DNA from: Alphaproteobacteria bacterium | GTDB lineage: Bacteria; Pseudomonadota; Alphaproteobacteria; RF32; CAG-239 | Length of the DNA stretch: 49,462 nucleotides | NCBI GenBank assembly: GCA_045126755.1 | Contig: JBGVOY010000139.1 | Coordinates: forward strand, 1-49,462 | Direction of reading: 5' to 3' | In this document: positions 23,491 to 45,490 of the stretch, one piece after another | Numbering within the stretch: the stretch's first letter is position 1 | Layout: each line of letters starts with the position of its first letter | The notes under the pieces: model-generated | Told to the model about the DNA's origin: nothing | The model's database searches: none | What the model saw: only the letters and a program-made list of their open reading frames with translations | Translations under genes and position numbers: made by a program

Positions 23491-23508
23491 AACCAAACAC
23501 CTTTCTTT

Positions 23509-24264: not shown

Positions 24265-24449
24265 TTAGCTATCCTTTGGTTTTATATATTTCTCTCCATA
24301 AATATAGCAAGTTTATTGAGTAAATCAACAAAAATTTGTTTAAAACAGGTATGGTTTTGTTACAAACAAGAAATGTTTTGTGTTTTGCATATTTAACCGA
24401 TTTAACTTATTATCGCTTTAGTTAAAAATATTGAAAAGGAAAATTAAAC

Positions 24450-25610
24450 ATGACTAACAAACCAGAAAAACCTATTAACTTGTTTGATTGTGCTGCTTCT
24501 CAAAAAGTTATCGGACAAGATAAATTTTTAGATGCTTTCAAAAAAATTTTAGATCATGGTGCATATTGTCAAGGTCACGAAACTCGTGAATTAGATCAAA
24601 AATTGGCTGAATATTCCGGCACAAAATATTGTGCAACATGCGGATCCGGAACCGACGCATTAACTTTGGCCCTTATGGCATGGGATGTTAAAGAAGGTGA
24701 TGCAGTGTTTGTTTCTTCATTTACCTTCGTTGCATCTGCTGAAGCTCCCGTATTGTTAGGCGCAACACCAATCTTTATTGATTCTAAACCTGATACATAC
24801 AATATGGATCCTGCAGACTTAAGACGTGCTATCGAAATGGTTAAAAAAGAGGGAAAACTTAACTTGAAAGCTATTATTCCGGTTGATATTTTCGGTTCTC
24901 CGTGCGAATACGATGAAATTATGAAAATTGCTGAAGAATATGGTATGAAAGTTTTATCTGACTCTTGCCAATCTTACGGTTCGGTTTATTATGGTAAAAG
25001 AGCCGGTTCTATCGCTGATATGACAGCTACTTCATTCTATCCGACAAAACCTTTAGGCGGATATGGTGACGGAGGTGCCGTATTTATCAATTCAGATAAA
25101 GAAAATGAACTTGTTAAATCTGCTCGTGTTCACGGTATGAGCCCGACTGACCACTATGACAACGTTCGTTTAGGTATGACAGGTCGTATGAACACATTCC
25201 AAGCTGCAGTATTATTACAAAAACTCACTGTTTTTGAACAAGAACTTAAAGACAGATACACTATTGCAAAACGTTATGACAATGAATTAAGTTCTTATTT
25301 CGGCAAACAAAAGATTTTAGATAACTGCCAATCTGCATACGCTTTATATACCATCACTTGTGAAAATCGTGATGAGCTGATGGCTTACTTGAAAGAAGCT
25401 GGTATTCCTTGCGGTGCATACTACCCACGTCCGGTAAATACACAAACAGCTTATGCAAAATGGAATACCCGTTCATTACCGGTTTGCGAAAAATTATCCA
25501 AAACAGTATTGAGTATTCCGATGCATCCGTATTTAGATAGCGACGTTCAATCTTATATCATTGAAAAGATGAATGAATTTGCATCAAAATATGAGGCAAA
25601 AGCCGCTTAA
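24450..25610 (+). CDS. DegT/DnrJ/EryC1/StrS-family PLP-dependent sugar aminotransferase
   Basis: 386 aa. GSGTDALTLAL, PLP-lysine context SFYPTKPLGGYGDGGAV, and SIPMHPYL near the C-terminus. Confidence 0.85.
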   Translation: MTNKPEKPINLFDCAASQKVIGQDKFLDAFKKILDHGAYCQGHETRELDQKLAEYSGTKYCATCGSGTDALTLALMAWDVKEGDAVFVSSFTFVASAEAPVLLGATPIFIDSKPDTYNMDPADLRRAIEMVKKEGKLNLKAIIPVDIFGSPCEYDEIMKIAEEYGMKVLSDSCQSYGSVYYGKRAGSIADMTATSFYPTKPLGGYGDGGAVFINSDKENELVKSARVHGMSPTDHYDNVRLGMTGRMNTFQAAVLLQKLTVFEQELKDRYTIAKRYDNELSSYFGKQKILDNCQSAYALYTITCENRDELMAYLKEAGIPCGAYYPRPVNTQTAYAKWNTRSLPVCEKLSKTVLSIPMHPYLDSDVQSYIIEKMNEFASKYEAKAA

Positions 25611-25623
25611 TAAACATAGCATT

Positions 25624-25652
25624 AAAAAACCTCCCAATCGGGAGGTTTTTTT
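25624..25652. terminator. Bidirectional terminator between the aminotransferase gene and virB11 (end of the T4SS operon)
   Basis: AAAAAA-CCTCCC-AATC-GGGAGG-TTTTTTT. Confidence 0.8.
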
Positions 25653-25664
25653 ATTTTATTTTTA

Positions 25665-26633
25665 CTAGGTAACTTCAGTAATTGCACGCAAGTTACCATC
25701 ACGATTGATTTGAACAACCCTTAATTTATGGCGCATTTCCTCAATCGTTTTTACTCTGTCAATAGTAGGATATGTGTGCAAAATACGGTCTGTAAATGCC
25801 TGATATGCAGCTTCTGAACTTTCAGCGTGAATTGTTGCCAAGCAGTTATCGTGACCTGAACCCATCAACTCCCATAATGCACCGGCATTAGATGTTGAAA
25901 TCTCACCTCCGATAATGGCATCAGGTGTAAAACGAACCACCAAGTCAATAATTTTTGCATAATCCATTTCGTTAGTTTGCTCGGTACGAGATAATGTTAA
26001 ATGCACTCTGTTCGGATGCGGAACCAAAAGTTCTCGGGTATCCTCTATGGTAAGCACTCTTTTATGAATATCTAAAATTTTTAACAAGTTATTCAAAAAA
26101 GTTGTTTTACCGGTTGAGGTTGCACCACTTACCAAAATATGATCGCCCCTTTTTATACTCAATAACAATCTTTCATACGGATCTTCAGGATCTTTAATAT
26201 CTTTCAGTGGGTTTATCTTATGCAAAGCTTTTCCTTGTGTTAATCCGTAATCGGATAATCCGAATGCAACGTCATCACTGTGAATACGAATTGTTAAAGC
26301 AACACCGCCTGTTAAATCATCATTATCATACATAACGTTACGGCCTGCAATCGCCGAAAAACGGTGGTCTCCCGGTATAGTTGCATAAACAACCGGAGAA
26401 CCTTGAACAGGGTCAAACGGAAGTTCGTATGTATTTGCAATAATATACAGCAAATCTGTTAAATATTCTTTGGAAAGTTTTTCATCTTTATACATTACCC
26501 ACGGATATGCTCTCTTGCCGCGTAGCCTTAACCATATCTGCCCTGCTTTATTGATGGCTACTTCCTCAATATTTTCCTGATTATACCAATATGATAATGG
26601 CCGTAAAACTGATTCTAATACCGTAAAACTCAT
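25665..26633 (-). CDS. virB11: T4SS ATPase VirB11
   Basis: 322 aa. N-terminal ...EEVAINKAGQIWLRL, Walker A SGATSTGKTTFLN, Asp box LTIEDTRE, His box GHDNCLATIHA. Last gene of the operon. Confidence 0.9.
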   Translation of the reverse strand: MSFTVLESVLRPLSYWYNQENIEEVAINKAGQIWLRLRGKRAYPWVMYKDEKLSKEYLTDLLYIIANTYELPFDPVQGSPVVYATIPGDHRFSAIAGRNVMYDNDDLTGGVALTIRIHSDDVAFGLSDYGLTQGKALHKINPLKDIKDPEDPYERLLLSIKRGDHILVSGATSTGKTTFLNNLLKILDIHKRVLTIEDTRELLVPHPNRVHLTLSRTEQTNEMDYAKIIDLVVRFTPDAIIGGEISTSNAGALWELMGSGHDNCLATIHAESSEAAYQAFTDRILHTYPTIDRVKTIEEMRHKLRVVQINRDGNLRAITEVT

Positions 26634-26644
26634 ATCTTTATCCT

Positions 26645-29600
26645 TTAGAATAATGCTCCGGATTGTTGGTTATATGTCGATGCCGTAGCGCCTGTTGACG
26701 GAGGCGGAGGTGGTGCTCCGTTGTATATCGGAGCACTTCTTGAAGGCGTCTTTTTCTTAGCCGGAGCTTCATCGATTAAACCACCTGACGGTTGAGCCTT
26801 TTCATCTTCGGCACCCATTACGTGAACGGAACCGCCTCCTGAATTTGCCTTATCATCGCCATCTTTACCTTGAACATTACCTTCTCTACCGTTAATCAAG
26901 ACACCGGAAGGATCATCTGATTCCTTTTCATCTTCCAATTCACGGGCAGGTGTTCTTATCCATAAATCTACTTTCGGATATATTATAATACGTGTTCCGG
27001 CAGGCACATAAGCAACTGCAGAAATATCTGTTTTATCTTTCAATATCTGTTGGAAAATATTGTTCATACCGTCAACAAAGTTATCTCTGGCTTCTTCTGC
27101 AGCCTGAGCTTTAGCATTTTGAACAGAGTTACCGTTTGAATCGGTTGTCGTTTCACCTGCTGCTGCTACATAAGTAATTGCACTTGTAAGAGATGTGGTA
27201 ACAAGAGGCAACGTGTATTTCTTAAGTAATTGTTCATCAATATAGCCAAGAGCTCCTGATTTACCTTGAGCATCACCCGTAACCGCATTGGCAAACTGGA
27301 ATGCGGAGCCATCGGGCCTTATCAAACGCTCCCAAGTAATACTTACCCTTACGGAACTTCCGGAGCTTCCGCCTCCAAATCCGCCCATAGAGCCCATTAC
27401 CCGGCTTCCTGCAGGAATTACTATATTTCTGCCGACTTCCGCATAAATATTTCTTTCAACGATAGCCGTAACAGGAACGCCATCGGCTCCTGACATAATT
27501 GTTCTTGCCAGCACTGCAGGAATAGGTTTATCGGCTAATATCATTTCGCTCATATCAACACGCCAAGAAGATATATCTCGAGCTACACCTTCCCAGTGCG
27601 TAGCCGTGCCGTCATACGATTCTTTATTTATTTTTGTAGATACTTTACTAACCGAAAACTCTTCTCGGCGTAAATTGTGCGCAGCACTGATTCCGTATGC
27701 GCGAATAGGATCATATCTTTCACCGGGACCATATCCGCCTCCGGGGCCTAAATTACTTACCTTATTACCTTCTCCGTATGCTTCGCCGGCACCCATAACA
27801 CCCGCCGGAACAAACATTGTTTCGGCAGAAGTTTTTTTAATTTCTTCCACTCCGGCCAATTCTCCGTAGTTATCTATAATAAGTCCGTCATTAGTTCTTT
27901 TACCTATAACGTTTCCGTTTACGTCGATAACATCATTGTTTTCTAAAATATTACCCAGAAAATTCCCATCAGGGTTAATAGCAATACCTATCACTTGCAT
28001 TTTTTTATCTTTTACTTGAGGTTCTTCTGTTATTTGTTCGGGAATTTCAATTTCACCAACCTGAATCTGTTCCTCTTCTTCAACATTTTTAGGTTTTTTA
28101 ATTATAATCGGTTTTCTTGTATTGTAATATTGCAAATAACGTGCTTTTGCCAATAATTTTCCGTTTTCATCTCTAACTTCACCGCTTCCGGATACTTTAC
28201 CTGCAACTGCATATTCGTTATCAACGACATCTCCGTCTATTAAGAGTTCTCCTATTACTTTATTATTTTTATCGCGAATAAAATAGTCTCTTGAACCACG
28301 TCCGATTATTTCATAATTCTTGTTTACCAAAAATCCTCTATCGGCTGTTCCGAGCGTTGTGCCGGCAAACGATGTTACGGAACCTGCCTTTGTAAGATAA
28401 CCGATAGCAAAATTATCTTTATCATATACGTAAACATCGTATAAAGCATATCCCAATTCTTTTCTTCCGGAAACTACCAATCCGTCGTAATTTACTTTTG
28501 CCAATACTTCATTTTTATCGTTAACAACTTCAGCCTTCTGGTTAACTCTACCCATAAAATTATTTTCGTTATCAAAAGCAAAACGATATTTAAAAGCAAC
28601 ACCTAATATTTTTTCGGCATCTTCAGATACGACCGTTCCGTCAGGTCTTACATATCCTATAACTTCGGAATTTTCATTTATAACCTTACCCGTTGTTAAT
28701 ATTCTGCCGATAATAACATTCTTAAAATTCATTACCGGTCCGGGTTCAACAACAGAAGCCTGAAAAACATTATCGTCGTTATATAAACGGCCATCCGATT
28801 TAACACAGCCCAAATCACGATTTTGATAGTCAATAGCTCTGCTTACACCATTGATGTTTGCAATAAGTTTTCCGTCAAAGTTAATCAATGAGCCTTTTTT
28901 AGGAGCAAAACCAACCATTGTTCCTACATCACTGATAACTTGATTGTTTGCTAATATCTTGCCTAAAACAACATCTCTGCCGTTTCGCACATCGCCTTTA
29001 GGGCTTACAACACCGATATATTCGCATACATTATTCACAACACTGTTAAAATCAGCCGTTTGACCGATAACGGAACCGTCGATTCCGCTGACTAAATTAT
29101 TGCTGATAGCTTTACCTATGATATTTCCGGCATAATTTTTTACTTCTCCGTTATGTTCCGCATAACCTAACATATTACCGTTAAAACCGATTACCATAAA
29201 TGCCCTGCCTATATTACCCGATACAGGCATCATATTTTCTGATACAGACTGAGTAGTTTCCACAACATCATATTCCGGAACTATTTTTGCCGTTATATTA
29301 CCTTTTCCATCCGTAATAAAATTGTTTTGCGCCAAAAACGGCATAATTTTACTGTCTAGCCCTATTGCATAATAAATATCGGATAATTGAGTTGAATATA
29401 TGTTATTATCAGCATCAATAACTTCTCCATGCTGTGTAATTTTTAAACCCAATTCTGTCGGAACACCGTTTATTTTTCCATCAATACCCACATATCCTTT
29501 AGGCATACCTGCCTGTGTATATGTATCGGATAATTCCAGTGTATTACCAATCAGCACGCTATCTGAAGAAAAAACATATCCGAAAGGAGATACTTTATAA

Positions 29601-30841
29601 CTGACATTCGCAGATGAAAAATCTGCCCCTGTTCCTTTAAGCCCGAGAACATCATTTGATGTTGTAATAATCAATGATGTATCTGCTCCGGCTCCCAATA
29701 TTCTGCCTATATTATCATAAACATAGTTTCCTTTTGTGTAGCCCATAAGTGTTCCCGACATAGAAATCGCAGAGCCGTTACTAAGCGCCATAGCAGTTAA
29801 ATTACCTAAGTAGTCAAAAACAGGACCAGTATATGATAATTGTCCCACAATTTTTCCGGTATTATCATAAACCATGGCTCTTGGCCCTACATAGCCTATG
29901 ATATCCTCTGAGCGAGCGACTTTACCTTCGGGCATAATTCGGCCTAAATATTTACCGTTAAAATCATTTGCAGTTGCTGCTATATCAACAAAAAAACCGA
30001 TAACTTCGTTGTTTGCATTTACTATTTTATTATCAGCACGAAGCCTGCCCACAACATTACCCTGATTTATAACTTCTCCGTTGTATGTTATAAGACCTAA
30101 ATAATTACCTACATTATCAAATGCGTATCCGCTAATTACCGTCCTTCCGATAACTTTATCGGTATTATCATACACATATCCGTTTGCGTGAACACTACCT
30201 ATAGTTTTAGTATCAAAATCGGTTACTTTGCCGCCGGGGGCGATACTACCTATAAATTCTCCCGTTGAAGATACTACCATTTTAGATGAAATTAAACGTC
30301 CGTCCAGAGTATATCTGCTTCCGCTGTTTTTATAAGCATACCCTGACGGAGATACAAAACCTATGTTCTGTCCGTCTATACTGACATATAAACCATCACC
30401 GGTCAAACGTCCCACCGTTTTTCCCGAATCATTATAAACTAAGCCCGGATATAAGACAGAACCTAAAATATTATATGAGTCATCTACAACCAAAGCATTA
30501 GGAAGTGTCTTACCTATTATTTTTCCAGAAGGTAAGCGAACCGTTCCGTCATTGTTTACTTTTCCCAACAATTTATTGTCATTTCCTATAACAACACCTT
30601 GAGGAACAACACCACCTATTATGTTACCTTCCGTATTGACTATAAAACTGTCTGCCGTAACGTTTCCGATTATTTGATTATCAAGCCCTACAACAGAACC
30701 ATCCGGTATAACCTTTCCGATAACTTTACCGTTAAAATCTATGGCAGTTATTTCGTTTGCGTAAACATACTTTGCCGTAACAATCATTACGGTTAATAAA
30801 ACTAAAAAAGCTCTAAATATTTTATTTAATGTTTTTTGCAC
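26645..30841 (-). CDS. virB10: Giant VirB10 (1398 aa): signal-like N-terminus, about 870 aa of 17-residue repeats, TrbI/VirB10 core, Pro-rich C-terminal tail
   Basis: The C-terminal ~220 aa match the VirB10/TrbI core pattern: DKPIPAVLARTIMSGADGVPVTAIVERNIYAEVGRNIVIPAGSRVMGS...ITWERLIRPDGSAFQFANAVTGDAQGKSGALGYIDEQL...VPAGTRIIIYPKVDLW. GTG start 1 nt after the upstream stop. Sits in the position virB9-X-virB10-virB11. Confidence 0.85.
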   Translation of the reverse strand: MQKTLNKIFRAFLVLLTVMIVTAKYVYANEITAIDFNGKVIGKVIPDGSVVGLDNQIIGNVTADSFIVNTEGNIIGGVVPQGVVIGNDNKLLGKVNNDGTVRLPSGKIIGKTLPNALVVDDSYNILGSVLYPGLVYNDSGKTVGRLTGDGLYVSIDGQNIGFVSPSGYAYKNSGSRYTLDGRLISSKMVVSSTGEFIGSIAPGGKVTDFDTKTIGSVHANGYVYDNTDKVIGRTVISGYAFDNVGNYLGLITYNGEVINQGNVVGRLRADNKIVNANNEVIGFFVDIAATANDFNGKYLGRIMPEGKVARSEDIIGYVGPRAMVYDNTGKIVGQLSYTGPVFDYLGNLTAMALSNGSAISMSGTLMGYTKGNYVYDNIGRILGAGADTSLIITTSNDVLGLKGTGADFSSANVSYKVSPFGYVFSSDSVLIGNTLELSDTYTQAGMPKGYVGIDGKINGVPTELGLKITQHGEVIDADNNIYSTQLSDIYYAIGLDSKIMPFLAQNNFITDGKGNITAKIVPEYDVVETTQSVSENMMPVSGNIGRAFMVIGFNGNMLGYAEHNGEVKNYAGNIIGKAISNNLVSGIDGSVIGQTADFNSVVNNVCEYIGVVSPKGDVRNGRDVVLGKILANNQVISDVGTMVGFAPKKGSLINFDGKLIANINGVSRAIDYQNRDLGCVKSDGRLYNDDNVFQASVVEPGPVMNFKNVIIGRILTTGKVINENSEVIGYVRPDGTVVSEDAEKILGVAFKYRFAFDNENNFMGRVNQKAEVVNDKNEVLAKVNYDGLVVSGRKELGYALYDVYVYDKDNFAIGYLTKAGSVTSFAGTTLGTADRGFLVNKNYEIIGRGSRDYFIRDKNNKVIGELLIDGDVVDNEYAVAGKVSGSGEVRDENGKLLAKARYLQYYNTRKPIIIKKPKNVEEEEQIQVGEIEIPEQITEEPQVKDKKMQVIGIAINPDGNFLGNILENNDVIDVNGNVIGKRTNDGLIIDNYGELAGVEEIKKTSAETMFVPAGVMGAGEAYGEGNKVSNLGPGGGYGPGERYDPIRAYGISAAHNLRREEFSVSKVSTKINKESYDGTATHWEGVARDISSWRVDMSEMILADKPIPAVLARTIMSGADGVPVTAIVERNIYAEVGRNIVIPAGSRVMGSMGGFGGGSSGSSVRVSITWERLIRPDGSAFQFANAVTGDAQGKSGALGYIDEQLLKKYTLPLVTTSLTSAITYVAAAGETTTDSNGNSVQNAKAQAAEEARDNFVDGMNNIFQQILKDKTDISAVAYVPAGTRIIIYPKVDLWIRTPARELEDEKESDDPSGVLINGREGNVQGKDGDDKANSGGGSVHVMGAEDEKAQPSGGLIDEAPAKKKTPSRSAPIYNGAPPPPPSTGATASTYNQQSGALF
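28150..30750 (-). repeat. Coding repeat array in virB10 (about 51-bp / 17-aa period, degenerate)
   Basis: Recurrent x-D-G-x-V-V-x-x-x-G-N-I-I-G-x-V units, e.g. GKVIGKVIPDGSVVGLDNQIIGNVTADSFIVNTEGNIIGGV. Boundaries estimated by eye. Confidence 0.7.
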
Positions 30842-30842: not shown

Positions 30843-33800
30843 TTAGTTCCTCCGATTTTGAGCTACTTCTTGTAAAGCATATCCCACAACTTGTTTATCT
30901 ATATTAACAAACGAGCCGTTACTTTTCAAATATCCTATTTCTTTTCCGCTTGAACCTATAACTTTACCATCTGATGATAAATATCCTAAATATTGACCAT
31001 CGCTTGATAATACTGCCGTTCCGATTTTAAATATCTGCCCGATAATATTGTTCTGATTATCTATAGCTAAACCGCCGGAAAGTGTTCTGCCTATTATACT
31101 GTTATCCGACGATCTGATACTTCCGTCAAATGCAACAAATCCGGCTACTTTATCCTGATTATCAATCACGATATCACCGCTTACAACTTCACCGATAATT
31201 TTACCGTCAGTGCTGCTTACTTTACCGTCTGAATGAACATTTCCGATTATTACGTTTTTAGTGTTTATAACAGCTCCTTCCGGAAGAACCGAACCGATTA
31301 CGTTACCGCCAAAATCAACCACCGTTCCACGTTTTAATACACTCAAATTTTTATCGGTAGAGCCTCCGGGTAAAACAAAAGTAACAAGACGCCCTTTCAA
31401 ATCTGAAACCTCGCCTCTTTCATTTGTATAACCCTTGTATGCGCCGAACAAATCTATAACCGTATTTTGTTCTGTTTGTTCACCCAATATTTTACCGGTT
31501 TTATCCAAAATTAAACCGTTTAACGCATATAAAGCAACTTCTTGACCGAGATCTGTCAGCACTCTTCCTGACGGAGTTACATATCCGAGATATGAACCGT
31601 CATAACCTATTGCCGCACCCGTTTTCACAACGGAACCTACATATTTCCCTTTATCATTAAACCAACGCCCTTGTGTATCGACTGTTCCCAAATCATCCCC
31701 AAATCGATTAACCACACGGCCGTCAAAGTTTACAAAACCTTGCGCATTACCGTTTATATCGGTAACATATCCGGTCGGCATCATTTTACCTGCAATAGCG
31801 CCATAAAAGCTTAATCCGTCGCCATATATTTTATCAACCGGCATTCCGCTATTGTCATAAACTTTTCCGTCAGCAAATATTCTGCCGATTTCTTCGCCGG
31901 ATGAGTTTATTATCCTATTAAATTCAGGTAAAGCTACTCCGATAATGCGGTTATTTTCGCTAACTATATATCTGTGAAGCAACAATTTTGCTCCGGGATA
32001 ATCTTTCAGTGTAAATGTTCCGTCAGACTTAAACGTAGTAAGCAAATTACCTTTCATATCAAACACATAAAAGTTATTGTTGATTTTTCCCAGATATTTA
32101 CCTTCGGAACTATAAATTTCTTTATCTTCGGACACACAACCTACTCCGTTGCCGTTTGATGCTACCACTTGTCCGTAAGGTGATACAGTGCCTAATTTTA
32201 TACCGTTTGCCATATATCCCGTTTTATACTCTGCGACATATCCGATAACATCACCTTGTTCATTTAACACCGTGCCATCCGGATTAGTGCAACCGACATA
32301 ACTTCTGTTATTGCTTACAACGCCTTGTTCGTTGGCATAACCTAAATAATTACATTTATTATCAAATACCCTACCCGTCTTAACCGGATGCCCGACATAT
32401 TTTCCCATAGCATCGTATATTCCGCCGTCAAGACGTATTCTATATGGTAGAACCTGATTATCTTTTACTATTTTACCGGTTTTATCCAGTATACCAATGT
32501 TATTACATCCCCAACCTACTATAACTCCGCCGGACACTCCTTTTCCTATATATCTGGCCCCGCTTTTATCTTTTATCAATCCGTTGGGAAGTATTCTGCC
32601 GACAACTATACCTCTTTCAGATGTTACATCTCCGTTTTCGGCAATTATACCCATAACATCACCTGTAGGAGTAACGGGAACAAGCTCTGTTTTAACAACA
32701 CTTCCTATTGAAGATTTATCATAAACCACAACCCTTCCGTTTTCATCAACTCTGCCGATAATATTTCCCTGCCCGTCAACAGCATTGCCGTTTCCGTCGA
32801 CGTATCCGACTACATTTCCGTTTTCATCAACAATTACATTCACATAATCACCGGCTTTACCTATAACTCTTCCTGCTGCATCGACAATCGTTCCGTCTTC
32901 TTGCATTTTACCGATTACATTGCCCGCAAAATCGATTACGTTACCGTTTTCATCCACATACCCGATTACATTTCCGTTATTATCATAAGCAAGACGTCTG
33001 GAATCTCCTATTTTACCGTTTGTTGCAACAATACTACCGTCTTCTTTGGCATGTCCGATAACTTTGCCGTTAGAAGACACTACATCTTTTTCATGATTAA
33101 CATATCCGATTACATTTCCGTTTTCATCAACTGCGACATCAGCACTTCCGCCCAATTTAGCATAGATTATTCCGTCAGCCCCAATCAGAGTGCCGTCTTC
33201 TTGTATTTGTCCCAGAAGTGTGCCATCCATATTGAATATACTTCCGTCTTCTTGCATTCTGCCTAAAAGTGTTCCGTCAGCATTTAAAACTGCTTTTTCT
33301 TCACTAACATTACCGATTTCTTTACCGCTTTTATCGACAACAGTTCCATCCGGTAAGGCCATCCCTATCAGCTTACCGTTTTCGTCAACGACCGTCCCGT
33401 CAGGCAAGGCCATTCCTACCAACTTACCGCTTTCATCATAAACTAAATTATTTTCACTAATGGTCCCCATTAGCTTACCGTCTGCGCCGACTAAATCTTT
33501 TTCACCAAAAACTTTTCCTTCTACATTTCCATTTGCATCAACAACGGAATTCTTTTCATATTTTTTACCGATTATGTTACCGTCTACATCGACAACAGTG
33601 CCGTCTTTATTTGCTTTATACAATAAATTACCGGTTTTATCAACCACTTCTCCGTCTTTAGTTTTTGCACCGATGAAATTGCCGTTTGCATCAAAAACAG
33701 CTTTATCCGTACTTTTTTTACCTACAATATTACCATTTTTATCTATAAGATTACCTTCAGCATCGGTCTGATACAATTTGTTGTGATTTAAGTCTACTAT

Positions 33801-35639
33801 TGTTCCGTCAGGTAAGGCCATTCCTATTAACTTACCTTCATTGTCATAAACAGGTTTGCTTTCACCAACTTTACCTATTACATTACCGTTTGCATCGACA
33901 ACAGTTCCGTCAGGCATAGCTTTTCCGATTACATTACCGTTTTCATCAACAACCGTTCCGTCAGGAAGAACTCGTCCTATAACATTACCGTTTTCATCAT
34001 AAACTAATTTTTCTTCGCCGACAAAACCAAGCGAACTTCCATCTTCATTATAGAGGACGTTTCCATCGCCTAACACACCTAAAACATTGCCGTTTTCATC
34101 AACGTATGTTTCATTTTCGACAACGCTGCCTATTAACTGTCCGTCAAAAGTAAGCGCATTACCGGTTTCATCGATATAACCGATAACTTTACCGTCATCA
34201 TCATAGACAAGTTTTTTCTCTTCACCTATGCGACCGATTTGTTTTTCGGATAGAGCAAAAGCTTCACCGTTTTCATCGACATAACCTACAATGTTTCCGT
34301 TTTCATCAACGATGGAATTGTCCGGCATCACTACACCTAAAACATTTCCTTCATCATCTGTTACCGTGCGTCCTGATTTGCTGACGAAACCGATTACATT
34401 GCCGTTCATATCGACAACTTCACCGTTTTCATTTAATCTGCCTAAAACATTGCCTTCAAAATCAACAACTGTTCCGTCATCTAAGACACGTCCTATAACG
34501 TTACCGTTTTCATCATACACAAAACCGGCGTCGACCGCTTTACCGATTACATTACCGTTTTCATCAACAACTGTTCCGTCAGGAAGAACTTTACCTATAA
34601 CATTTCCTTCAAAATCAATAGCTTTTCCATCGGGTGTAACATAACCGATAATATTTCCGCTTTCATCGAAAATAAGTTTTTTGTTACCGGCAACACCTAT
34701 AATATTTCCGTCTTTATCGACAACCAACCCGTCAGCATTCACGCGTCCGATAATATTACCGTCTTCATCACGCACATAACCTTCATCATCGATATATCCC
34801 AAAACTTTACCGTCAGGACCATAAGCAACTCTCAGCTTTGAAGTATCTGCCTGAACTTTACCGACGACATTACCGTTTTCATCTATTACGTTGCCGTTTG
34901 CATCTATTGTGCCTATGACGTTACCGTTTTCATCAACCGCTTTACCATCTGCCGTAACTCTGCCTATGATGGCACCTTCGCTATTTTTAATAACTTTTTC
35001 ACCTGCAGATGAAGCCCCTGCTCCTGAAGAAGTTTCGCAATAGTTACAGTCTTCTTTTACTACGGCTCTTCCTTCTACCGGAACTTTTTGAGCTTTTGCA
35101 TTGGCAGCACTGACATTTGTTTCGTGCCAAGATACAATGTAATTGTTTTGAACATTACCTGAAACAACCGGCGCCCATTTCATTGTTACGTTACAGGTTT
35201 GATTACCTCTTAACTCGGCTCCTGTACACTCATCAACAAAAGTAAAACCGTCAAAAGGAGGTTCAGCCAGCTTAACCGACACAATTCGTATAGACGCTTT
35301 GCCGTTTGTTCCTATTGTCAAAACATTTATAGCTTCAGTTCCTAAAACAACTTGCCCCATATTTATCGGATCGGGAGTAGTTGTTATAGGGATTTCTTGT
35401 TCAACAACATCGTCAAATTCTATTCCGTTCATCAGAGGAGATGTATCCTCCTCTATTCCCAAAACATCATCATCTTCGGTAAACACAACTTCTTGCTGTT
35501 CTATCATGCCCGAACCGCTTGAAAACAATAAAATAAGTCCGAACAAAAACACTACAAACGAGGTTATACCGACAATTAAGATGATACGGTTTGTCTTACG
35601 AACATAACGTTCCGATGATGTTAAAACTTCTTTGCTCAT
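30843..35639 (-). CDS. Giant T4SS-embedded repeat protein (1598 aa): cytoplasmic tail, TM anchor, beta-sandwich-like domain, about 1380 aa of 17-residue repeats; no named family
   Basis: N-terminus ...RKTNRIILIVGITSFVVFLFGLILLF (TM). Residues ~85-175, MGQVVLGTEAINVLTIGTNGKASIRIVSVKLAEPPFDGFTFVDECTGAELRGNQTCNVTMKWAPVVSGN, follow the ASH/HYDIN ('choice-of-anchor D') beta-sandwich pattern. Repeats of IGKVLPDGTVVDENGNV run from there to the C-terminus. ATGA overlap with the virB9 stop. Confidence 0.8.
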   Translation of the reverse strand: MSKEVLTSSERYVRKTNRIILIVGITSFVVFLFGLILLFSSGSGMIEQQEVVFTEDDDVLGIEEDTSPLMNGIEFDDVVEQEIPITTTPDPINMGQVVLGTEAINVLTIGTNGKASIRIVSVKLAEPPFDGFTFVDECTGAELRGNQTCNVTMKWAPVVSGNVQNNYIVSWHETNVSAANAKAQKVPVEGRAVVKEDCNYCETSSGAGASSAGEKVIKNSEGAIIGRVTADGKAVDENGNVIGTIDANGNVIDENGNVVGKVQADTSKLRVAYGPDGKVLGYIDDEGYVRDEDGNIIGRVNADGLVVDKDGNIIGVAGNKKLIFDESGNIIGYVTPDGKAIDFEGNVIGKVLPDGTVVDENGNVIGKAVDAGFVYDENGNVIGRVLDDGTVVDFEGNVLGRLNENGEVVDMNGNVIGFVSKSGRTVTDDEGNVLGVVMPDNSIVDENGNIVGYVDENGEAFALSEKQIGRIGEEKKLVYDDDGKVIGYIDETGNALTFDGQLIGSVVENETYVDENGNVLGVLGDGNVLYNEDGSSLGFVGEEKLVYDENGNVIGRVLPDGTVVDENGNVIGKAMPDGTVVDANGNVIGKVGESKPVYDNEGKLIGMALPDGTIVDLNHNKLYQTDAEGNLIDKNGNIVGKKSTDKAVFDANGNFIGAKTKDGEVVDKTGNLLYKANKDGTVVDVDGNIIGKKYEKNSVVDANGNVEGKVFGEKDLVGADGKLMGTISENNLVYDESGKLVGMALPDGTVVDENGKLIGMALPDGTVVDKSGKEIGNVSEEKAVLNADGTLLGRMQEDGSIFNMDGTLLGQIQEDGTLIGADGIIYAKLGGSADVAVDENGNVIGYVNHEKDVVSSNGKVIGHAKEDGSIVATNGKIGDSRRLAYDNNGNVIGYVDENGNVIDFAGNVIGKMQEDGTIVDAAGRVIGKAGDYVNVIVDENGNVVGYVDGNGNAVDGQGNIIGRVDENGRVVVYDKSSIGSVVKTELVPVTPTGDVMGIIAENGDVTSERGIVVGRILPNGLIKDKSGARYIGKGVSGGVIVGWGCNNIGILDKTGKIVKDNQVLPYRIRLDGGIYDAMGKYVGHPVKTGRVFDNKCNYLGYANEQGVVSNNRSYVGCTNPDGTVLNEQGDVIGYVAEYKTGYMANGIKLGTVSPYGQVVASNGNGVGCVSEDKEIYSSEGKYLGKINNNFYVFDMKGNLLTTFKSDGTFTLKDYPGAKLLLHRYIVSENNRIIGVALPEFNRIINSSGEEIGRIFADGKVYDNSGMPVDKIYGDGLSFYGAIAGKMMPTGYVTDINGNAQGFVNFDGRVVNRFGDDLGTVDTQGRWFNDKGKYVGSVVKTGAAIGYDGSYLGYVTPSGRVLTDLGQEVALYALNGLILDKTGKILGEQTEQNTVIDLFGAYKGYTNERGEVSDLKGRLVTFVLPGGSTDKNLSVLKRGTVVDFGGNVIGSVLPEGAVINTKNVIIGNVHSDGKVSSTDGKIIGEVVSGDIVIDNQDKVAGFVAFDGSIRSSDNSIIGRTLSGGLAIDNQNNIIGQIFKIGTAVLSSDGQYLGYLSSDGKVIGSSGKEIGYLKSNGSFVNIDKQVVGYALQEVAQNRRN
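30870..35003 (-). repeat. Coding repeat array (51-bp / 17-aa period, roughly 80 units by length)
   Basis: Spacing between successive (I/V/L)G dipeptides is 17 aa in the regular stretches, e.g. IGYVTPDGKAIDFEGNV|IGKVLPDGTVVDENGNV|IGKAVDAGFVYDENGNV. The C-terminal third is more degenerate. Confidence 0.75.
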
Positions 35640-37354
35640 TGCACTCTTACCACGCTACAGAATACCCCATTACGTCCCAAATGACCGCAAATTTCATCGC
35701 CGACATCTATTGATTGAACAGGACCTATTCTTAAATGGAACAACTCTTTGCCTTGTCCGTCGGCAGGTGCATCAACGGAATAAAACGGTTTATACTCACC
35801 TAAGATAGAATTATATCTGGTAGATAATTCATACCATAAATCTTCTAAGTTACTGACATTGGCATCTGTTCCCAATTCAACGGAAATACTTGCAGAATCT
35901 TCATTTTCGAAACCTTTACCGAAACGATATCCGTTTAAAGCTCCGTTATTTGCAAATCCTTGCATTAAAGCACTTTGTTTTGTATTGCCGCCCATTCCGG
36001 ATACAAAAGAGCCTGAAGCGTTACTATTATTTCCGCCCTTTGCATATTCCGGAATCAGCAATTCGCCGTTAGGTCCTAATTTTACCGTATATTCACCGAC
36101 TAAACTTTCCGAACCGCCACGAGATGATGCTAAATAACCATTTTGTGCATTATTCTGTGCGTTGGAAACATTTTCTGCTCCGGTGCCTAATGTTATTGAG
36201 CTGGAAATAGGGGCTACATTTACCGGAGCCGGTTCTTCTTTTTTGTTAATATCTATAAACTCAAAACCTTGAACAGAACTTTCTCCGCTTGGAGTTTTTC
36301 CGCCCGGAAATGCGAAAGGCACATCCCAGTCATTTGTTTCTGCCATAGGAGCAAACTCTGTTCCTTGGTCATCGGAACGGCGCAATTTCAAACAAACAAT
36401 TCTTTTACCGTTACGAAGAACCATATCACCGACACCTTCTACGATAATCAAACGATTATCCGGACCTGCCGTGCGGAAACCGACCGGAGTTTCAGCTCTT
36501 TCAACAATCAAAGTAACTATAGGTCTTTGCACCATACTTAAAGCTCTGTCACCGAAATCGATGTATGTAAAGATGTCATCACGCCACACTCTCTCCGGCG
36601 CTATAACAACATCATCGGGGTTTGGAACATATACTTCAACATCAAAACGCAACTTTGTCGGATCAAGAGGAATGCTCTTAATCCAATCTTCTTTTTGATT
36701 TCTTTTTGTGAAAGTAGCGTCTACATTGTTTTTACTGCTTTTAACGGCTCCTCCGGATGTTCCCGTTCTGGAAGAACCGCCGGCCACTCCCGACATAGAG
36801 CCGTCTCCATTAACATCATCGACAACTTCGATATCTATCACTGAGTTTGTTAAACGCTCCGTATTAAAACTTTCACTCTTGGTGTAAAAAACATACTTAT
36901 TACCGGAACGACCGAAAACTATTATGTTTGTATCAAGACCGACTTTACCGCCCTGAGGATATAACAAAAGTGTATTCGGCCCCGAAATTTCAGCAGTAAA
37001 GTTTTTACTGTCACCGATATAAACATCTTCTAAAAGTTCCCATTCAGGAAAGTTTATCAAAGTAAGCATTCCTTCTCTTAAACGAACAGGCAACACCAAA
37101 TCAGGCGACCAATAATATTTTGAATAAGCAGGCTTAGTCTGTCCTTCACCCAAATTTTGCAAAGGATCTAACCACGCACTTTGAGTCATACCTATTGACC
37201 CAAATCCTAAATAATCTAAATTTTGAGGCGCATATACACCCTGCTGATTATTAGCCACACTGTCAAGGCTATCAATAGTAGCCTGAGCATTCGCACCGGT
37301 GGCGGTTAAAACCAACGCCATAACAGAGAATATTTTAGTCGCTATATTTTTCAT
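35636..37354 (-). CDS. virB9: VirB9 (572 aa) with Gly/Ser/Asn-rich linkers and a SPOR-like C-terminal domain
   Basis: Signal peptide MKNIATKIFSVMALVLTATGANA. VirB9 NTD pattern (LVLPVRLREGMLTLINFPEWELLEDVYIGDSKNF...TNIIVFGRSGNKYVFY) and CTD pattern (PERVWRDDIFTYIDFGDRALSMVQRPIVTL...GFRTAGPDNRLIIVEGVGDMVLRNGKRIVCL). For the tail, see findings. Confidence 0.85.
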   Translation of the reverse strand: MKNIATKIFSVMALVLTATGANAQATIDSLDSVANNQQGVYAPQNLDYLGFGSIGMTQSAWLDPLQNLGEGQTKPAYSKYYWSPDLVLPVRLREGMLTLINFPEWELLEDVYIGDSKNFTAEISGPNTLLLYPQGGKVGLDTNIIVFGRSGNKYVFYTKSESFNTERLTNSVIDIEVVDDVNGDGSMSGVAGGSSRTGTSGGAVKSSKNNVDATFTKRNQKEDWIKSIPLDPTKLRFDVEVYVPNPDDVVIAPERVWRDDIFTYIDFGDRALSMVQRPIVTLIVERAETPVGFRTAGPDNRLIIVEGVGDMVLRNGKRIVCLKLRRSDDQGTEFAPMAETNDWDVPFAFPGGKTPSGESSVQGFEFIDINKKEEPAPVNVAPISSSITLGTGAENVSNAQNNAQNGYLASSRGGSESLVGEYTVKLGPNGELLIPEYAKGGNNSNASGSFVSGMGGNTKQSALMQGFANNGALNGYRFGKGFENEDSASISVELGTDANVSNLEDLWYELSTRYNSILGEYKPFYSVDAPADGQGKELFHLRIGPVQSIDVGDEICGHLGRNGVFCSVVRVQ

Positions 37355-37369: not shown

Positions 37370-38119
37370 TTATTCTGGTTTATTACGAGAAACATTATAT
37401 CTGCCAACGGTAAAACCTATCGGATTATTAAGTCTTTCGCCATATTTAACATTTTTCTTGCGGTAACCTACTCGTAATGACACCGTCCAATATTCCACTT
37501 TAGGCGCAGGAGATGACGGATACATATCTCTTGTTTCGTATTCAACTTGCCATATACCATTACCGAGATCGTTAACTGTCATAATTCTGACAGAACGTAC
37601 CAAACCTTTCTTTTTAATAGTATCCAAAGCCTTTTTTGCCGTTTTTTCAATAAATGTCTGATACACTGCAGATGTTGACATCTCTTGTATCGGACCACCC
37701 GGAAGCCAACGAGATTCCATTTCTTTGACATTACTTGAAAAAGCACTACGCAGAAGCACATATTCACGAACAAACGTTTCCGTTATTTCTTTTCTGCTTT
37801 CCATATTTGAAAGAGGCTGAATATTGTATACCTGTTCTTGCTTATTTTCAAAAGTCAATATAAACGACTCAAGACGATATAAAGGTAAAAGCTGTCCTAT
37901 TGCCAACATAAGAACAATATTACAACATAAGCTCACGGCAACAACTACGGCAAACGCACGTGCTGTCCACAAATATCTGCGTTCACCCGCATTGACGATA
38001 ACATCATCATTATCTCTTCTGCCTGCAGGTGCATTTGCCCTTCTGATATTTTGACGGGGGGCACCTTGGCGACCTGCTATCAACCTTTGCTGTGTATTAT
38101 TGCCTAAGCGTTCAACCAT
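37370..38119 (-). CDS. virB8: VirB8 (copy 2, Arg-rich N-terminal tail)
   Basis: 249 aa. Bitopic: TM AFAVVVAVSLCCNIVLMLAIGQL. Periplasmic NTF2-like domain with ...FVREYVLLRSAF... and the signature NNPIGFTVGRY near the C-terminus. Confidence 0.85.
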   Translation of the reverse strand: MVERLGNNTQQRLIAGRQGAPRQNIRRANAPAGRRDNDDVIVNAGERRYLWTARAFAVVVAVSLCCNIVLMLAIGQLLPLYRLESFILTFENKQEQVYNIQPLSNMESRKEITETFVREYVLLRSAFSSNVKEMESRWLPGGPIQEMSTSAVYQTFIEKTAKKALDTIKKKGLVRSVRIMTVNDLGNGIWQVEYETRDMYPSSPAPKVEYWTVSLRVGYRKKNVKYGERLNNPIGFTVGRYNVSRNKPE

Positions 38120-38126
38120 ATTGCAC

Positions 38127-38315
38127 CTATATTGTTGCTACAAACCAATCAGGAAGTGTGTGCGGAAGTTCAACTTCAATACATGCACACGGCGATAATT
38201 TAAGTTCGTTTACATCTTTACCAATACCCACAGGTTCCGGTTCATAATATGTACCGAACATACCACACGCAGATAAAAGTATAAGTGCAATCAATAAAAT
38301 TATTTTTTTATACAT
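38127..38315 (-). CDS. virB7: VirB7-like small lipoprotein
   Basis: 62 aa. Lipobox LLSAC. Additional Cys (SPCAC). Located between the two virB8 genes and 7 nt upstream of virB8 copy 2. Assigned by size, lipobox and position only. Confidence 0.5.
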   Translation of the reverse strand: MYKKIILLIALILLSACGMFGTYYEPEPVGIGKDVNELKLSPCACIEVELPHTLPDWFVATI

Positions 38316-38464
38316 TGCAATGTTCCTTATAATAAATATGTCTAGACACTATCACATTAAACCCTTTATTTTAAAAAGTCTAACATGAACCTCACGAATC
38401 CCCAACTTATTAACAAATTAGAATTCGTTTTAGCATATCATAAACTAAAAAGATTTAAAATAAA

Positions 38465-39223
38465 TTAAAGAATTTCAACTTCTGTTTGAGAATATTTAGT
38501 AACCGTAAATCCCAACGGATTCATCAAACGTCTGGATAAAAAATACCTTTCAGGTATAAACGATGCTATCATAGACACAGTCCAATACCTTGTTACAAGC
38601 ACCATTTCGCCTGTTGTTTCATTACGATTCGAAGGTGATAAGTCATAAGTCTTAAAGTCAACTTTCCATAACGGAGATTTTTCTCCTCCGACCTTTCCGA
38701 CAGATATAATATCTACTTCACGTGAAATTTTATCTTTATACAGTTGTTGCAATTTTTGCTCACCGTCCTTAAAAAACTCATTAAAGACAGGTATCGAAGA
38801 TAAATATGAAACCATACCGCCGGCATACCATCTGGTTTGCATCTCTTTTGTATCGTATATAACCGTATTGCGCAAAATAACATATTGCCGTATAAAAAGC
38901 TCCATCATTTGTCTTGAAGACGGCATATCCGTTGATATGGCTTCATATCTTATCATTTCGTCTGAGTTATCTTGCTTGATTATCAAAAACGGCTCTACAT
39001 GAACTTCAGGCGCAAGCTTAAACAACACTAAAGAAGCACTGGTAAAAAACATCAAAGATAACATAGCCAAAAAAGCCATAAATCTTGATAACCAGCAATA
39101 GTAGTGTTCTCTGGCCGATGTTTTGCGAACATAGGTATCGGTTATATAATTTAACTCCACCCTTCTGTTTTGTTCATCGGTTATTGACAACGGTCTGTTA
39201 GTTGCGCCTAATTGATTATTCAT
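38465..39223 (-). CDS. virB8: VirB8 (copy 1)
   Basis: 252 aa. TM FMAFLAMLSLMFFTSASLVLF. Contains FIRQYVILRNTV and MNPLGFTVTKY. AAGGAG SD. Confidence 0.85.
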   Translation of the reverse strand: MNNQLGATNRPLSITDEQNRRVELNYITDTYVRKTSAREHYYCWLSRFMAFLAMLSLMFFTSASLVLFKLAPEVHVEPFLIIKQDNSDEMIRYEAISTDMPSSRQMMELFIRQYVILRNTVIYDTKEMQTRWYAGGMVSYLSSIPVFNEFFKDGEQKLQQLYKDKISREVDIISVGKVGGEKSPLWKVDFKTYDLSPSNRNETTGEMVLVTRYWTVSMIASFIPERYFLSRRLMNPLGFTVTKYSQTEVEIL

Positions 39224-39238: not shown

Positions 39239-42200
39239 TTAATATACCGCACAATAAGGTTCTACAAACTCATTAAGATTTTTCTTATGAGATTCTTCAG
39301 CTTCTTTATCGTATTCAGATTGAGCCGCTCTATCTGTTTTTTCTCTTTTTATTCTTTCCTCTAATTCTTTATCAGGCTTCATATTATCGGTAAGTTTAAC
39401 AAGTTCATCGCTATCTTGTTTTAAGATTTTGCAAACATTGTCGAGAACCGCAATTTTTTCTTCAATCATGTCATTTTTAGGACTACTCTTGATGGAATTA
39501 ACGGTAGGACAAGCCTCATTAAAAAGTTTTGTTTTTCCATTATCGATAGCAACTAAAATCTCTTTATATGTTTTTTCATCAGATAAATCAAAATTTTCTG
39601 GCGGAACATAATCAAACTTAGCAAACTCGCCTTTCAATGTTTCTCGAGCTTCCTGAACCTTAACATCTAATTCATTCAAAGTTTTTTGATATTCCATTTC
39701 AAGCTCTACAAAACCTAAGAAGTTACCTATCTGATTTTTATTAAATACACTGTTATCTGCTCTATGTTTTTCATATACATCGTATTTATCTTCTTTATCC
39801 GTTGTTTCTTTAAGCTTGTCTAAATATTTCAATGTTTCAACATAAGAGCTATCAAATACCATACCGGTATCTCCGTTATTGGCGAACATCTTCAGCTCGC
39901 TGATTTTAGGAGCCGAAGAGCCCAAACTATCGGTTTTAACAATAAAATCATCACTTTCGTCTTTTAATTTAATTTTTATGCGATACGTTCCCAATAGTTG
40001 GTTGACGTCAATCTTTTCAATGTGATGACAAATCGCTGCGCCCTCCTCCTTCGGTGTAAGACTAATACCGCCTATCATATCAACCAAATATCCCGATACG
40101 CAAGGATACAAACCGCCTCTTGCTCTATAATCTGCAGCCGGAGGAATGTTTTCTTTGTCTTCTAACAATGAAGCCACGCTTACATGTCTGTCAACAAATC
40201 CTCTGTCTCCCAGTATGGTTTCCCATATTGCAGGCATTTCATAGCCATAATCCAAAAGACTTTCGTAAGGCATTGCACCGGTTTGTTTGTTTATAGCCAA
40301 TGTTTCATAGTCAATACCGTCGAAGTGAACAATTTCTCTGACCGGCGGTGTATAGCTTCTGTTTAACTTATTAGGCGCTGCAAAATCTTTTTCTTGCGGA
40401 GCCAAGCCTACAAAATAGTCTGTGCTGGCAGCATAACAACTGTTACTCGGACAAATTTTTTCAAACAATGCTTCTGCCACTGCTTTTTTTGCAGCAGTCT
40501 CAATAGTTGATATTGTGAGATAACCTGAAAGCATTCCTGCAGACAAATTAAGTTTAGGACTTTTAATATCATCCATAACAGAAGTATGTATTGACAATAT
40601 TTGATTGTGTTTATCCGGATTATATTTATCATCACCCAATGCCGTAATATCGGTATAGCCTCGGTTAATTGCAGAAATTGCATTCTGTTTAACTTGCAAA
40701 GCAGCAGAATCCGCTATTGATATTACCGTGCTGAAAATACGTCCTTTAGTAGTCGCAACAGATGATACATTATCAGATAATGTCTTTACCACTTTTCCTT
40801 CAATTTGTTCAAAAGAAGATTGCAACTGTTGTTCTTTTTGTTGTTGCAAGCTTGCTATAAGTGCAGCATATTTGTTTTTTGTATCTTCCAGTTCCTTTTT
40901 TGCTTGTTCCAGCTGAGCTTCCCATACATCAATACCGTTTCGAGCAGAATCTATTTCAGCTTTCAACCCTTTAAGTTCTGAAGCTGCAGTCTTTGCTTTA
41001 TCTTCAGCTTCTTTTTTATTTTTTCTTGCCGAATCTGCAAAACCATCCATTTGTTCTCCATCTTTCGTTTCTACCCACTTTTGGCGGTCAGTCGAAATAC
41101 CTAGCATTGTATCTTCAGCATCTATTGAACCTTTGTGTTGAATATATTCTTCAACTTTGTCGTTATATGCTTTTTTTGCATTGTTTAAATTAACATTAAA
41201 CTTATCAAGTTGCTCGTATGCTGTTTTTATTTTATTTTGAGCAGCCTGCTCGGCGGCTAAAAAGTTAGCTCTTTGAGTATTTATATTGCTCTCAAGTTGA
41301 GCTTGTAAAGCATAAATCGGATCAGTTTCTTCAGATACTGATATAGCGTTTTTGAGGTTATTGATACCGGAAGTAATATAACTTTTAAGTTCATTTACTT
41401 CTACACCGTGAACATATTTATTTGTATCCTGAACACACTCATCTTCTTCGTCGTCTTCATCGCATTCGGGCGGAGGAGGCTGAATACCGAAAATAGAAGA
41501 ATTGATTTTTTCCGCTATTGCTATTGATATCTCACGCAAATCCATATTATTTACGAATACCCCCATATTTTTATATTTCAAATCTAAATATTGATCATAA
41601 AAATATTTTTCATCTTCCCATAAATCATATTTGCGTTTGAAACTGCCATACTCATCAGATGAGCCCCTACTCATGCCCTCACCTACTTTTTTAGCAACCT
41701 CAGAGCCGATTTGCCAACCTAAAACATCTCTTTCTCGGTCAAGTTGCTCAAATTCAAGCTCTTTTGAAGGTTTAACCATTGACCTGTCGTTTGCCGTATT
41801 ATTATCCACAATATCTGCTTCTTGTTTTTCCATTTCTTCCATATCTTTTTGTGAAGAGGATACTTCAACGTCATCTGTTAAATCTGCAGCATTTTTTACA
41901 TCAATAGAATTATTTAATTGGATTACAAAATCATCTGCCGCAAACGTACGACCGCTGTTTTCCGAATCTGCCGTGGCATCGCCGCTTTCTGAATCATCTG
42001 CAACCTCTAGTGCCAAAAGTGCCTTTGCTTCTTTATATGAACCGATTGCATACCCCGACAAACCGGAGCGATTTTCATAGCTGTTAAGACCTGCTTTAGT
42101 GCAAATTTTTGTTTTATCGTCCTCACACAACATATACCCTGAAACAATATGGTCTAAATTTTCATCGGTTACCGCCATATTTCTGTCGCAATATACTGAA

Positions 42201-43540: not shown

Positions 43541-43551
43541 AATACACCTCA

Positions 43552-45479: not shown

Positions 45480-45490
45480 AGCCGTATTCC

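Follow-up and report, generated by a model that had tools for sequence, protein, structure and literature searches.

A giant VirB10 probably divided into two genes in the type IV secretion system of gut Alphaproteobacteria

The canonical VirB10 of the type IV secretion system (T4SS) is bitopic: it is anchored in the inner membrane, and its C-terminal barrel forms the lining of the outer-membrane core complex. Its tail and transmembrane region touch the inner-membrane ATPase platform, and ATP consumption by VirD4 and VirB11 elicits a response in the protein. VirB10 is considered the sole T4SS subunit to span both membranes physically, relaying to the outer-membrane gate the ATP-dependent signals of the inner-membrane ATPases, and to our knowledge every canonical VirB10 carries the N-terminal tail and transmembrane anchor and the C-terminal barrel in one chain. 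Enlarged relatives are also single polypeptides: CagY of Helicobacter pylori, whose repeats, of another type than those described here, are encoded by highly similar DNA copies that recombine in vivo to modulate function, and the type IVB protein DotG (IcmE) of Legionella and Coxiella, which is VirB10-like and has a long pentapeptide-repeat region. Here, we describe a T4SS locus in a 49,462-nucleotide (nt) stretch of DNA from an alphaproteobacterium (GTDB lineage RF32; CAG-239; GenBank assembly GCA_045126755.1, contig JBGVOY010000139.1, positions 1 to 49,462; hereafter the window), in which a gene designated X lies between virB9 and virB10. The initial annotation of this DNA took X for a new structural T4SS subunit inserted between these two genes. 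Our analysis indicates that X is very probably the N-terminal, inner-membrane half of a split, repeat-expanded giant VirB10.

A search with full-length X recovered X orthologues together with hundreds of proteins of 2000-2600 amino acids (aa) that share its repeats and end in a TrbI domain (hereafter, giants). The giants open with an X-like tail, MNEELLSSSDKYLKKSNR, which is followed by a transmembrane helix, a linker and an immunoglobulin-like (Ig) domain, the arrangement that makes up the N-module of X. Residues 1-211 of X aligned with residues 1-208 of the giants P0100 and P0103 at 30-32% identity (E 6e-29 and 3e-28), and among the best 120 relatives of X, 78 combined the N-module with TrbI (2015-2609 aa) and 35 were X-type proteins without TrbI. 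When 1.84 billion representatives were searched exhaustively with phmmer, the complete N-module was found solely in X-type proteins and giant VirB10s; the remaining matches were to the Ig domain alone, in tandem copies in unrelated large proteins. X gave no Pfam match to the TrbI domain (PF03743), which sits in the downstream gene.

The unsplit loci have the order VirB8-small open reading frame (ORF)-VirB8-VirB9-giant VirB10-VirB11, with no X gene. In two of them (L089 and L090) the start of the giant virB10 overlaps the virB9 stop, like that of X in the window, where the ATG of X and the TGA of virB9 overlap as ATGA, as had been noted before. Taken together, the homology of the N-module, the occupation of the same slot by a giant where X is absent, and the presence of a signal peptide on VirB10 in place of the N-module suggest that X and VirB10 together correspond to one giant VirB10. 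X is therefore not well described as 'new' or 'inserted', because its N-module is homologous to the N-terminus of an unsplit VirB10 in the same slot. X shares with VirB10 the tail and single transmembrane helix, homology to TrbI-bearing proteins and the position between virB9 and virB11. What it lacks is the continuity of a single polypeptide from inner to outer membrane, since two ORFs, a stop codon, a Shine-Dalgarno (SD) sequence and a new signal peptide are found in approximately 70 genomes.

Distribution in relatives was assessed from several directions. The N-terminal 222 aa of X retrieved 64 metagenomic relatives, all of them truncated, and a scan of GTDB species representatives yielded 245 X loci, all in alphaproteobacterial metagenome-assembled genomes (MAGs) of gut, rumen or faecal origin, some of which carry the labels 'Azospirillum sp.' or 'Ca. 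Scatocola'. The order VirB8-VirB8-VirB9-X-VirB10-VirB11 was seen in every fetched locus with enough flanking sequence, and X was a single intact ORF adjoining virB10 in 68 of the 72 species-level loci. X was also present in all three loci that were reached through VirB10 without reference to X. The dN/dS ratio of X was approximately 0.05-0.3 in all three of its regions, with dS saturated, and judged by these ratios X is under purifying selection. X homologues thus sit inside T4SS loci across MAGs, as the initial annotation had proposed to check. The constant position, the coupling to virB9 and virB10, the intact ORF in 68 of 72 loci and the dN/dS values imply that X is a genuine, conserved T4SS component, so that the earlier view of X as a structural subunit holds in this part. 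Current annotations label X 'DUF3659 domain-containing' or 'hypothetical'.

Split X ORFs were observed in a few assemblies. In a subclade represented by L004 (4700-5000; P0051, P0052 and P0055), three independent protein clusters share a frameshift at one spot early in the array. The X of L003 is interrupted by an in-frame TAA where a Leu is conserved (10915-10930), and in L001 X is disrupted by scaffold Ns. Many short-read fragments of X end in out-of-frame repeat text, for example P0011 (79 members). The split ORFs of L001, L003 and L004 were weighed as possible signs of phase variation or pseudogene formation; since L001 contains Ns and X is intact in 68 of the 72 species representatives, they are treated as exceptions, which may be real pseudogenes or variants, or errors.

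The tail of X is nearly invariant at residues T7, E10, Y12, K15 and T16. Hydropathy peaks at residues 19-37, and the positive-inside rule, with a basic tail before the helix and an acidic linker after it, points to an N-in topology. An AlphaFold model of residues 1-720, built from a 47-sequence alignment (mean predicted local distance difference test score (pLDDT) 72), showed a helix at residues 8-39, disorder at 42-78, a confident sandwich at 85-193 and then short regular hairpins. The anchor, acidic linker and beta-sandwich predicted in the initial annotation were thus all recovered by hydropathy and modelling. The best Foldseek matches of the sandwich were the ASH domains of HYDIN (2e6j, template modelling (TM) score 0.66), CEP192 (6fvi) and OCRL1 (3qbt), with further matches to MSP and to the Ig domains of VesB/VesC. 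Pfam ASH (PF15780) matched 18 of 22 orthologous N-modules at E <=1 (best 1.4e-5), and window X itself scored 18.4 bits (E 0.0025), below the gathering threshold of 27; the results agree with the original ASH/HYDIN-type assignment. Cys138 and Cys149 are invariant in the Ig domain, and shortly after it Cys198 is nearly invariant and Cys201 invariant. Relatives of this domain (residues ~85-170) occur in up to 34 tandem copies in huge, otherwise unrelated proteins such as P0185 (4358 aa), suggesting that it is part of a broad bacterial Ig-repeat family.

X is intact in the window as one reading frame of 1598 codons. Its self-identity was 0.27 at a lag of 17 aa (baseline 0.077), with decaying harmonics at 34, 51 and so on, and no extra peak was seen for a higher-order period of 85 aa (5 x 17). 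Scanning with a position-specific scoring matrix (PSSM) followed by chaining recognised 69-70 repeat units in X and at most 4 in shuffled sequence. The units cover residues 222-1581, which gives space for 80 units of 17 aa, and 17 was the commonest spacing (50 times). The previous count of about 80 copies is thus a fair description of the span, with about 70 units individually recognisable, and the PSSM consensus, GNVIG.V.PDGTVVDEN, is a circular permutation of the one given then. The Pfam search returned Bflower_2 with 365.6 bits (gathering threshold 38) over 15 stretches, and Bflower was also matched; DUF3659 scored 144.7 bits, and RHS_repeat reached a summed score of 71.9 bits with no single stretch significant. 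A sequence search of the PDB with X matched nothing.

The length of such an array could in principle reflect collapse or expansion of repeats during assembly, a concern already raised in the initial annotation. At the DNA level the repeat copies of X are 60-75% identical, with a maximum of approximately 86% over 80 nt, and Tandem Repeats Finder reported merely 2.6 near-tandem copies. An exact-match look-up of X across public assemblies gave no record. The VirB11 of the window had a public-assembly record, and by this route an independent Logan assembly contig (L085) was reached, which encodes a near-identical X, also exactly 1598 aa long, and a 1398-aa VirB10. Given the divergence of the DNA copies, the scarcity of near-tandem copies and the reproduction of both lengths in L085, an assembly artefact in the array length is unlikely.

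Twelve pairwise orthologue comparisons of X showed that length variation is restricted to residues 216-1000 (479-785 positions align), and that the last 598 aa, the C-module, align fully in 11 of the 12 comparisons (597 in L006). Over the scored species-level loci X ranges from 1086 to 1832 aa, and differences in copy number between species come mostly in steps of approximately 17 aa. The C-module contains four invariant Cys residues and was predicted to form one rigid all-beta body (pLDDT 89.6, predicted TM score 0.86). Foldseek revealed only local similarity of this module to Rhs/YD shells (E ~1e-14, TM scores 0.05-0.09), and none of the Foldseek matches was a solved structure with global likeness to it.

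The VirB10 encoded downstream contains repeats of the same family as X (Bflower_2 3e-44, 30-38 units), as had been stated before. Its C-domain has relatives in the PDB (ComB10 2bhv, 1.8e-23; CagY, Xanthomonas VirB10, TrwE and TraF) and, by this homology, is a bona fide VirB10 domain. At its N-terminus, 54 of 55 split-clade orthologues are signal-peptide-like, an AxA-type site preceding the conserved motif [QN]EITA[IV][DN]F. The X stop and the virB10 start are 1 nt apart in the window and 1, 2, 3 or 4 nt apart depending on the species, while the NRRN tail of X and an SD-preceded virB10 start were each found in 55 of 55 orthologues. As the spacer differs and the relative frame varies with it, conserved recoding is excluded and coupled re-initiation is favoured. 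The junction features (X tail, signal peptide and mature VirB10 N-terminus) were sought in the 78 giants and were absent from all of them.

The repeats of X and VirB10 are approximately 26% identical and no closer to each other than to those of the giants. The initial annotation was right on the shared repeat family, from which it suggested duplication or exchange between the two genes; recent exchange was rejected on the basis of the typical identity of 26% (best case, L078, 36%). The longest split-type VirB10 (2106 aa) is encoded in L078 (14187-20504). Its extra residues (~650) match the hidden Markov model (HMM) of the X C-module at 261 bits (typically ~104) and are 36% identical to the X of the same locus; this may point to repeats having been transferred or duplicated between X and virB10 long ago in that lineage. 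Over 69 split-clade loci the lengths of X and VirB10 were weakly anticorrelated (Spearman -0.30, p 0.013, not phylogeny-corrected), and none of the 69 combined an X of at least 1450 aa with a VirB10 of at least 1600 aa. The correlation was too weak for length compensation to serve as evidence, and it was set aside.

In neighbour-joining trees, the split clade (72 members for TrbI, 81 for the N-module) and the giant clade (78 members) were each monophyletic, the TrbI-domain tree being rooted with ComB10 and Xanthomonas VirB10. Their reciprocal monophyly implies a single event, after which the halves were inherited together. The single chain of canonical VirB10 and the greater divergence covered by the unsplit form argue for a change from unsplit to split; the most distant N-module carriers (P0310, P0239, P0238 and P0288) are all unsplit.

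On this basis, we consider it probable that X is the inner-membrane half of a giant VirB10 divided into two genes, with the halves re-associating in the periplasm. The ancestral form, which the giant clade would still retain, would have been one VirB10 of 2000-2600 aa: a tail and a transmembrane helix, then the acidic linker and ASH Ig domain, followed by about 100 hairpin repeats and a TrbI barrel. At the split, X would have retained the tail, anchor, Ig domain, variable regular hairpins and fixed 598-aa rigid module, and the downstream gene the remaining repeats and the outer-membrane barrel, gaining a Sec signal peptide of its own. The two proteins are made as a coupled pair, with a spacer of 1-4 nt between their genes and the SD inside the last codons of X. 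Whether the halves dock in the periplasm we regard as an even question; such docking would be non-covalent, plausibly between the X C-module and the conserved mature N-terminus of VirB10, and would restore the link from inner to outer membrane and the ATPase sensing of canonical VirB10. The hairpin arrays would build a large periplasmic scaffold around the channel, in which the variable regular repeats of X would act as a tolerant spacer. The length range of X argues against a precise ruler, and its inner-membrane anchor argues against a free surface fibre. A bolder version, which we hold only tentatively and which is somewhat doubtful, is that in a large and widespread clade of gut and rumen Alphaproteobacteria the bridge is severed and the halves are held solely by docking of rigid hairpin modules, so that approximately 2400 repeat residues per pair would form a megadalton beta-scaffold unlike any solved T4SS.

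Several observations weigh against the origin of X and VirB10 by division of a giant. The polarity comes from parsimony, as the split and giant clades are sisters and not nested. Tiled phmmer, position-specific HMMs, hhalign and a junction-motif search all failed to place the break point in the giants, and mappings of the repeat region to the giants are ambiguous in register (hhalign 425/408/392). Together X and VirB10 measure 2559-3499 aa, compared to a median of 2276 aa for the giants, indicating that more than a simple cut occurred. Cleavage of the VirB10 signal peptide is predicted by rule alone, and the interaction between X and VirB10 is inferred. The excess length, ~300-1200 aa per pair, would be accounted for if a whole giant virB10 had been tandemly duplicated and the copies had then suffered reciprocal loss, of TrbI upstream and of the N-module downstream; the outcome would be the same pair of genes, but the X C-module and the VirB10 N-region would then be paralogues. 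In agreement with this, the HMMs of these two regions both map, in long collinear matches, onto one central degenerate stretch of the giants, overlapping rather than side by side. However, similar scores are obtained for many alignment registers of the repeat arrays, the X and VirB10 repeats are no closer mutually than to the giants, and expansion after the split explains the extra length equally well. We therefore regard duplication as a serious contender that is nevertheless rather improbable.

The remaining explanations fare less well. X might have been invented independently as an accessory subunit (spacer, ruler, sheath or fibre) beside virB10, the giants arising by later fusion of X and VirB10. 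X does lack a TrbI domain, and with sister clades the topology alone leaves the direction unfixed, but canonical VirB10s, PDB relatives included, combine anchor and barrel in one chain, and a pre-fusion VirB10 would first have had to lose its own anchor. Moreover, the signal peptide, the mature N-terminal motif and the X tail are limited to the split clade, all distant N-module carriers are unsplit, and the range of X lengths does not suit a ruler, so that this origin is unlikely. Slightly less credible still is the idea that X is an adhesin or an antigenic module, exposed at the surface and varying fast, with repeat recombination serving to tune or mask the T4SS as in the middle repeat region of CagY. 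CagY is a precedent for repeat-driven modulation, the copy number of the regular repeats varies between species and X is disrupted in some assemblies. In contrast, the DNA repeats are old and, at their level of identity, poorly suited to frequent homologous recombination; selection is purifying along the whole of X; the C-module keeps a constant length, and its positions are conserved; X is equally long in a near-identical strain; and X is anchored in the inner membrane and homologous to the periplasmic region of VirB10. Finally, the closeness of the X stop to the VirB10 start and the frequent breaks and frameshifts in the repeats of related short-read contigs could suggest one gene broken by assembly or sequencing error, or joined by programmed recoding. 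This is hardly conceivable, given that the two-gene structure recurs in some 70 independent genomes at species level, in which the signal peptide, the SD and the X tail are all conserved, that the variable spacer leaves no fixed reading-frame relation, and that an independent assembly gives both lengths. Division of a giant VirB10 is thus the reading we prefer.

Table 1. Positions of gene X, its regions and the adjoining virB genes in the window
Feature	Coordinates	Strand	Basis or remark
virB11 ATPase	25665..26633	-	Pfam
virB10 (putative C-terminal half): signal peptide, ~1050 aa of repeats, TrbI barrel domain	26645..30841	-	Pfam, PSSM
TrbI/VirB10 C-terminal domain, aa 1101-1293 of VirB10	26963..27541	-	Pfam 5e-29
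Predicted Sec signal peptide, aa 1-28 of VirB10, cleavage between ..KYVYA and NEITAIDFNG	30758..30841	-	Rule-based
Gene X, very probably the N-terminal half of a split giant VirB10, 1598 aa	30843..35639	-	ATG start; stop codon 30843-30845
GGAGG Shine-Dalgarno for virB10, within the last codons of X (CGG AGG)	30849..30853	-	7 nt upstream of virB10 GTG
Fixed-length degenerate-repeat C-module of X, aa 1001-1598	30846..32639	-	Ends in conserved tail ..EVAxNRRN
Regular 17-aa beta-hairpin repeats of X, aa 222-1000	32640..34976	-	Copy number differs between species
ASH/PapD-like Ig beta-sandwich of X, aa 85-193	35061..35387	-	pLDDT ~90, Foldseek
Acidic, predicted disordered periplasmic linker of X, aa 41-84	35388..35519	-	pLDDT <50 at 42-78
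Single transmembrane helix (signal-anchor) of X, aa 19-40	35520..35585	-	Kyte-Doolittle hydropathy 2.97; AlphaFold helix 8-39
Basic cytoplasmic tail of X, aa 1-18, MSKEVLTSSERYVRKTNR	35586..35639	-	Conserved
virB9, 572 aa, CagX domain and weak SPOR-like C-terminus	35636..37354	-	
Two virB8 paralogues	37370-38119 and 38465-39223 (block 37370..39223)	-	Flank the lipoprotein ORF
62-aa lipoprotein ORF between the virB8 genes, MYKKIILLIALILLSAC..., lipobox LLSAC	38127-38315	-	VirB7-like

On the minus strand, the order of genes in the window is VirB4, four ORFs, VirB8, the 62-aa lipoprotein, VirB8, VirB9, X, VirB10 and VirB11. The VirB9 of the window is unusually long, and its last ~100 aa (..FHLRIGPVQSIDVGDEICGHLGRNGVFCSVVRVQ) gave a weak, sub-threshold match over the full length of SPOR, a peptidoglycan-binding domain (E 0.04, 14.7 bits); a weak SPOR match was also precomputed for the VirB9 of L095. 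The 62-aa ORF is probably the VirB7-type lipoprotein of the system, and an ORF of 60-70 aa occupies the same position between the virB8 genes in all related loci, split and unsplit. The four ORFs between virB4 and virB8 (39239-47101, minus strand) encode proteins of 536, 237, 404 and 1437 aa, for which neither Pfam nor NCBIfam gave anything informative; three of them have an N-terminal hydrophobic segment only, and at the threshold applied the 237-aa protein has none. Within the window, nothing was recognised as VirB2, VirB3 or a polytopic VirB6-like protein. Downstream of virB11 (20239-25610) are genes for a DegT-type aminotransferase, MlaA and MlaC and an 876-aa ORF without a family match, a layout that is identical in the near-identical strains L085-L087. 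These housekeeping envelope genes and the shared layout indicate that the T4SS is chromosomal and stably placed, and not on an obvious mobile element. Near one unsplit locus, L091, two adjacent mTERF (PF02536) genes (25063-26642) lie on the alphaproteobacterial MAG contig approximately 8.4 kb downstream of the giant-VirB10 gene; mTERF is normally a eukaryotic organellar family.

A natural split that is conserved and selected in dozens of species would provide a ready test of whether VirB10 must be a continuous chain, and would indicate the surfaces that carry the signal. If the bridge is indeed severed, neither energy coupling nor channel gating would require covalent continuity of VirB10. Being chromosomal and conserved in gut Alphaproteobacteria that are common but uncultured, the system probably matters for interaction with the host or with neighbouring bacteria. 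In annotation, X could become 'N-terminal part of VirB10'. No description of a naturally split VirB10 was found in the searchable literature, and a search for literature on the T4SS of RF32 or gut Alphaproteobacteria and on DUF3659 found nothing relevant.

The repeats of X can be compared with two described groups of hairpin proteins. With the Rhs/YD shells of T6SS (type VI secretion system) Rhs effectors, of the Tc toxins TcB/TcC and of teneurins, X shares the hairpin geometry and a YD-like ..VYDENGNVIG.. motif. The global TM scores to the Rhs, Tc and teneurin shells are so low that X is not an Rhs cocoon, and Pfam gave no match to a toxin or Rhs core domain in X, no motif search aimed at these having been made. 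The hairpin itself, with its [DNEQ]xxG turn motif, is that of the beta-flower (PF21784/PF21785, clan CL0395) and DUF3659 (PF12396) families. The beta-flower family was defined in 2023 from AlphaFold models, and the members described are small stand-alone closed barrels of ~100 aa and 8-12 strands, shallow and with 4-, 5- or 6-fold symmetry (Durairaj et al. 2023, PMC10584680). Unlike these, X has ~1360 aa of uninterrupted hairpins, the last 598 aa of which are predicted to form a single rigid body; the PDB held no beta-flower structure to match X. The T4SS locus would give the beta-flower/DUF3659 hairpin family its first clear cellular context.

Among T4SS proteins, the closest systems are the canonical VirB10/TrbI proteins (Agrobacterium tumefaciens VirB10, pKM101 TraF, R388 TrwE, Xanthomonas VirB10 and H. 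pylori ComB10). X resembles them in following virB9 and in having a tail and a transmembrane helix. However, the TrbI barrel that forms the C-terminus of canonical VirB10 is here in the partner gene of X, an Ig domain and ~100 beta-hairpin repeats stand in place of the short proline-rich periplasmic linker, and the one chain has become two polypeptides, the barrel half with its own signal peptide. In H. pylori CagY (Cag7; 1927 aa; PDB 6x6j, 6odi), VirB10 is likewise enlarged severalfold by repeats between the anchor and the VirB10 domain; unlike CagY, the present system uses 17-aa beta-hairpins with diverged DNA copies and a split gene. DotG is another VirB10 homologue whose periplasmic part has grown by short tandem repeats, again of a different type. 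The giant VirB10 of gut Alphaproteobacteria would thus be the third VirB10, after CagY and DotG, to have become giant independently through expansion of repeats.

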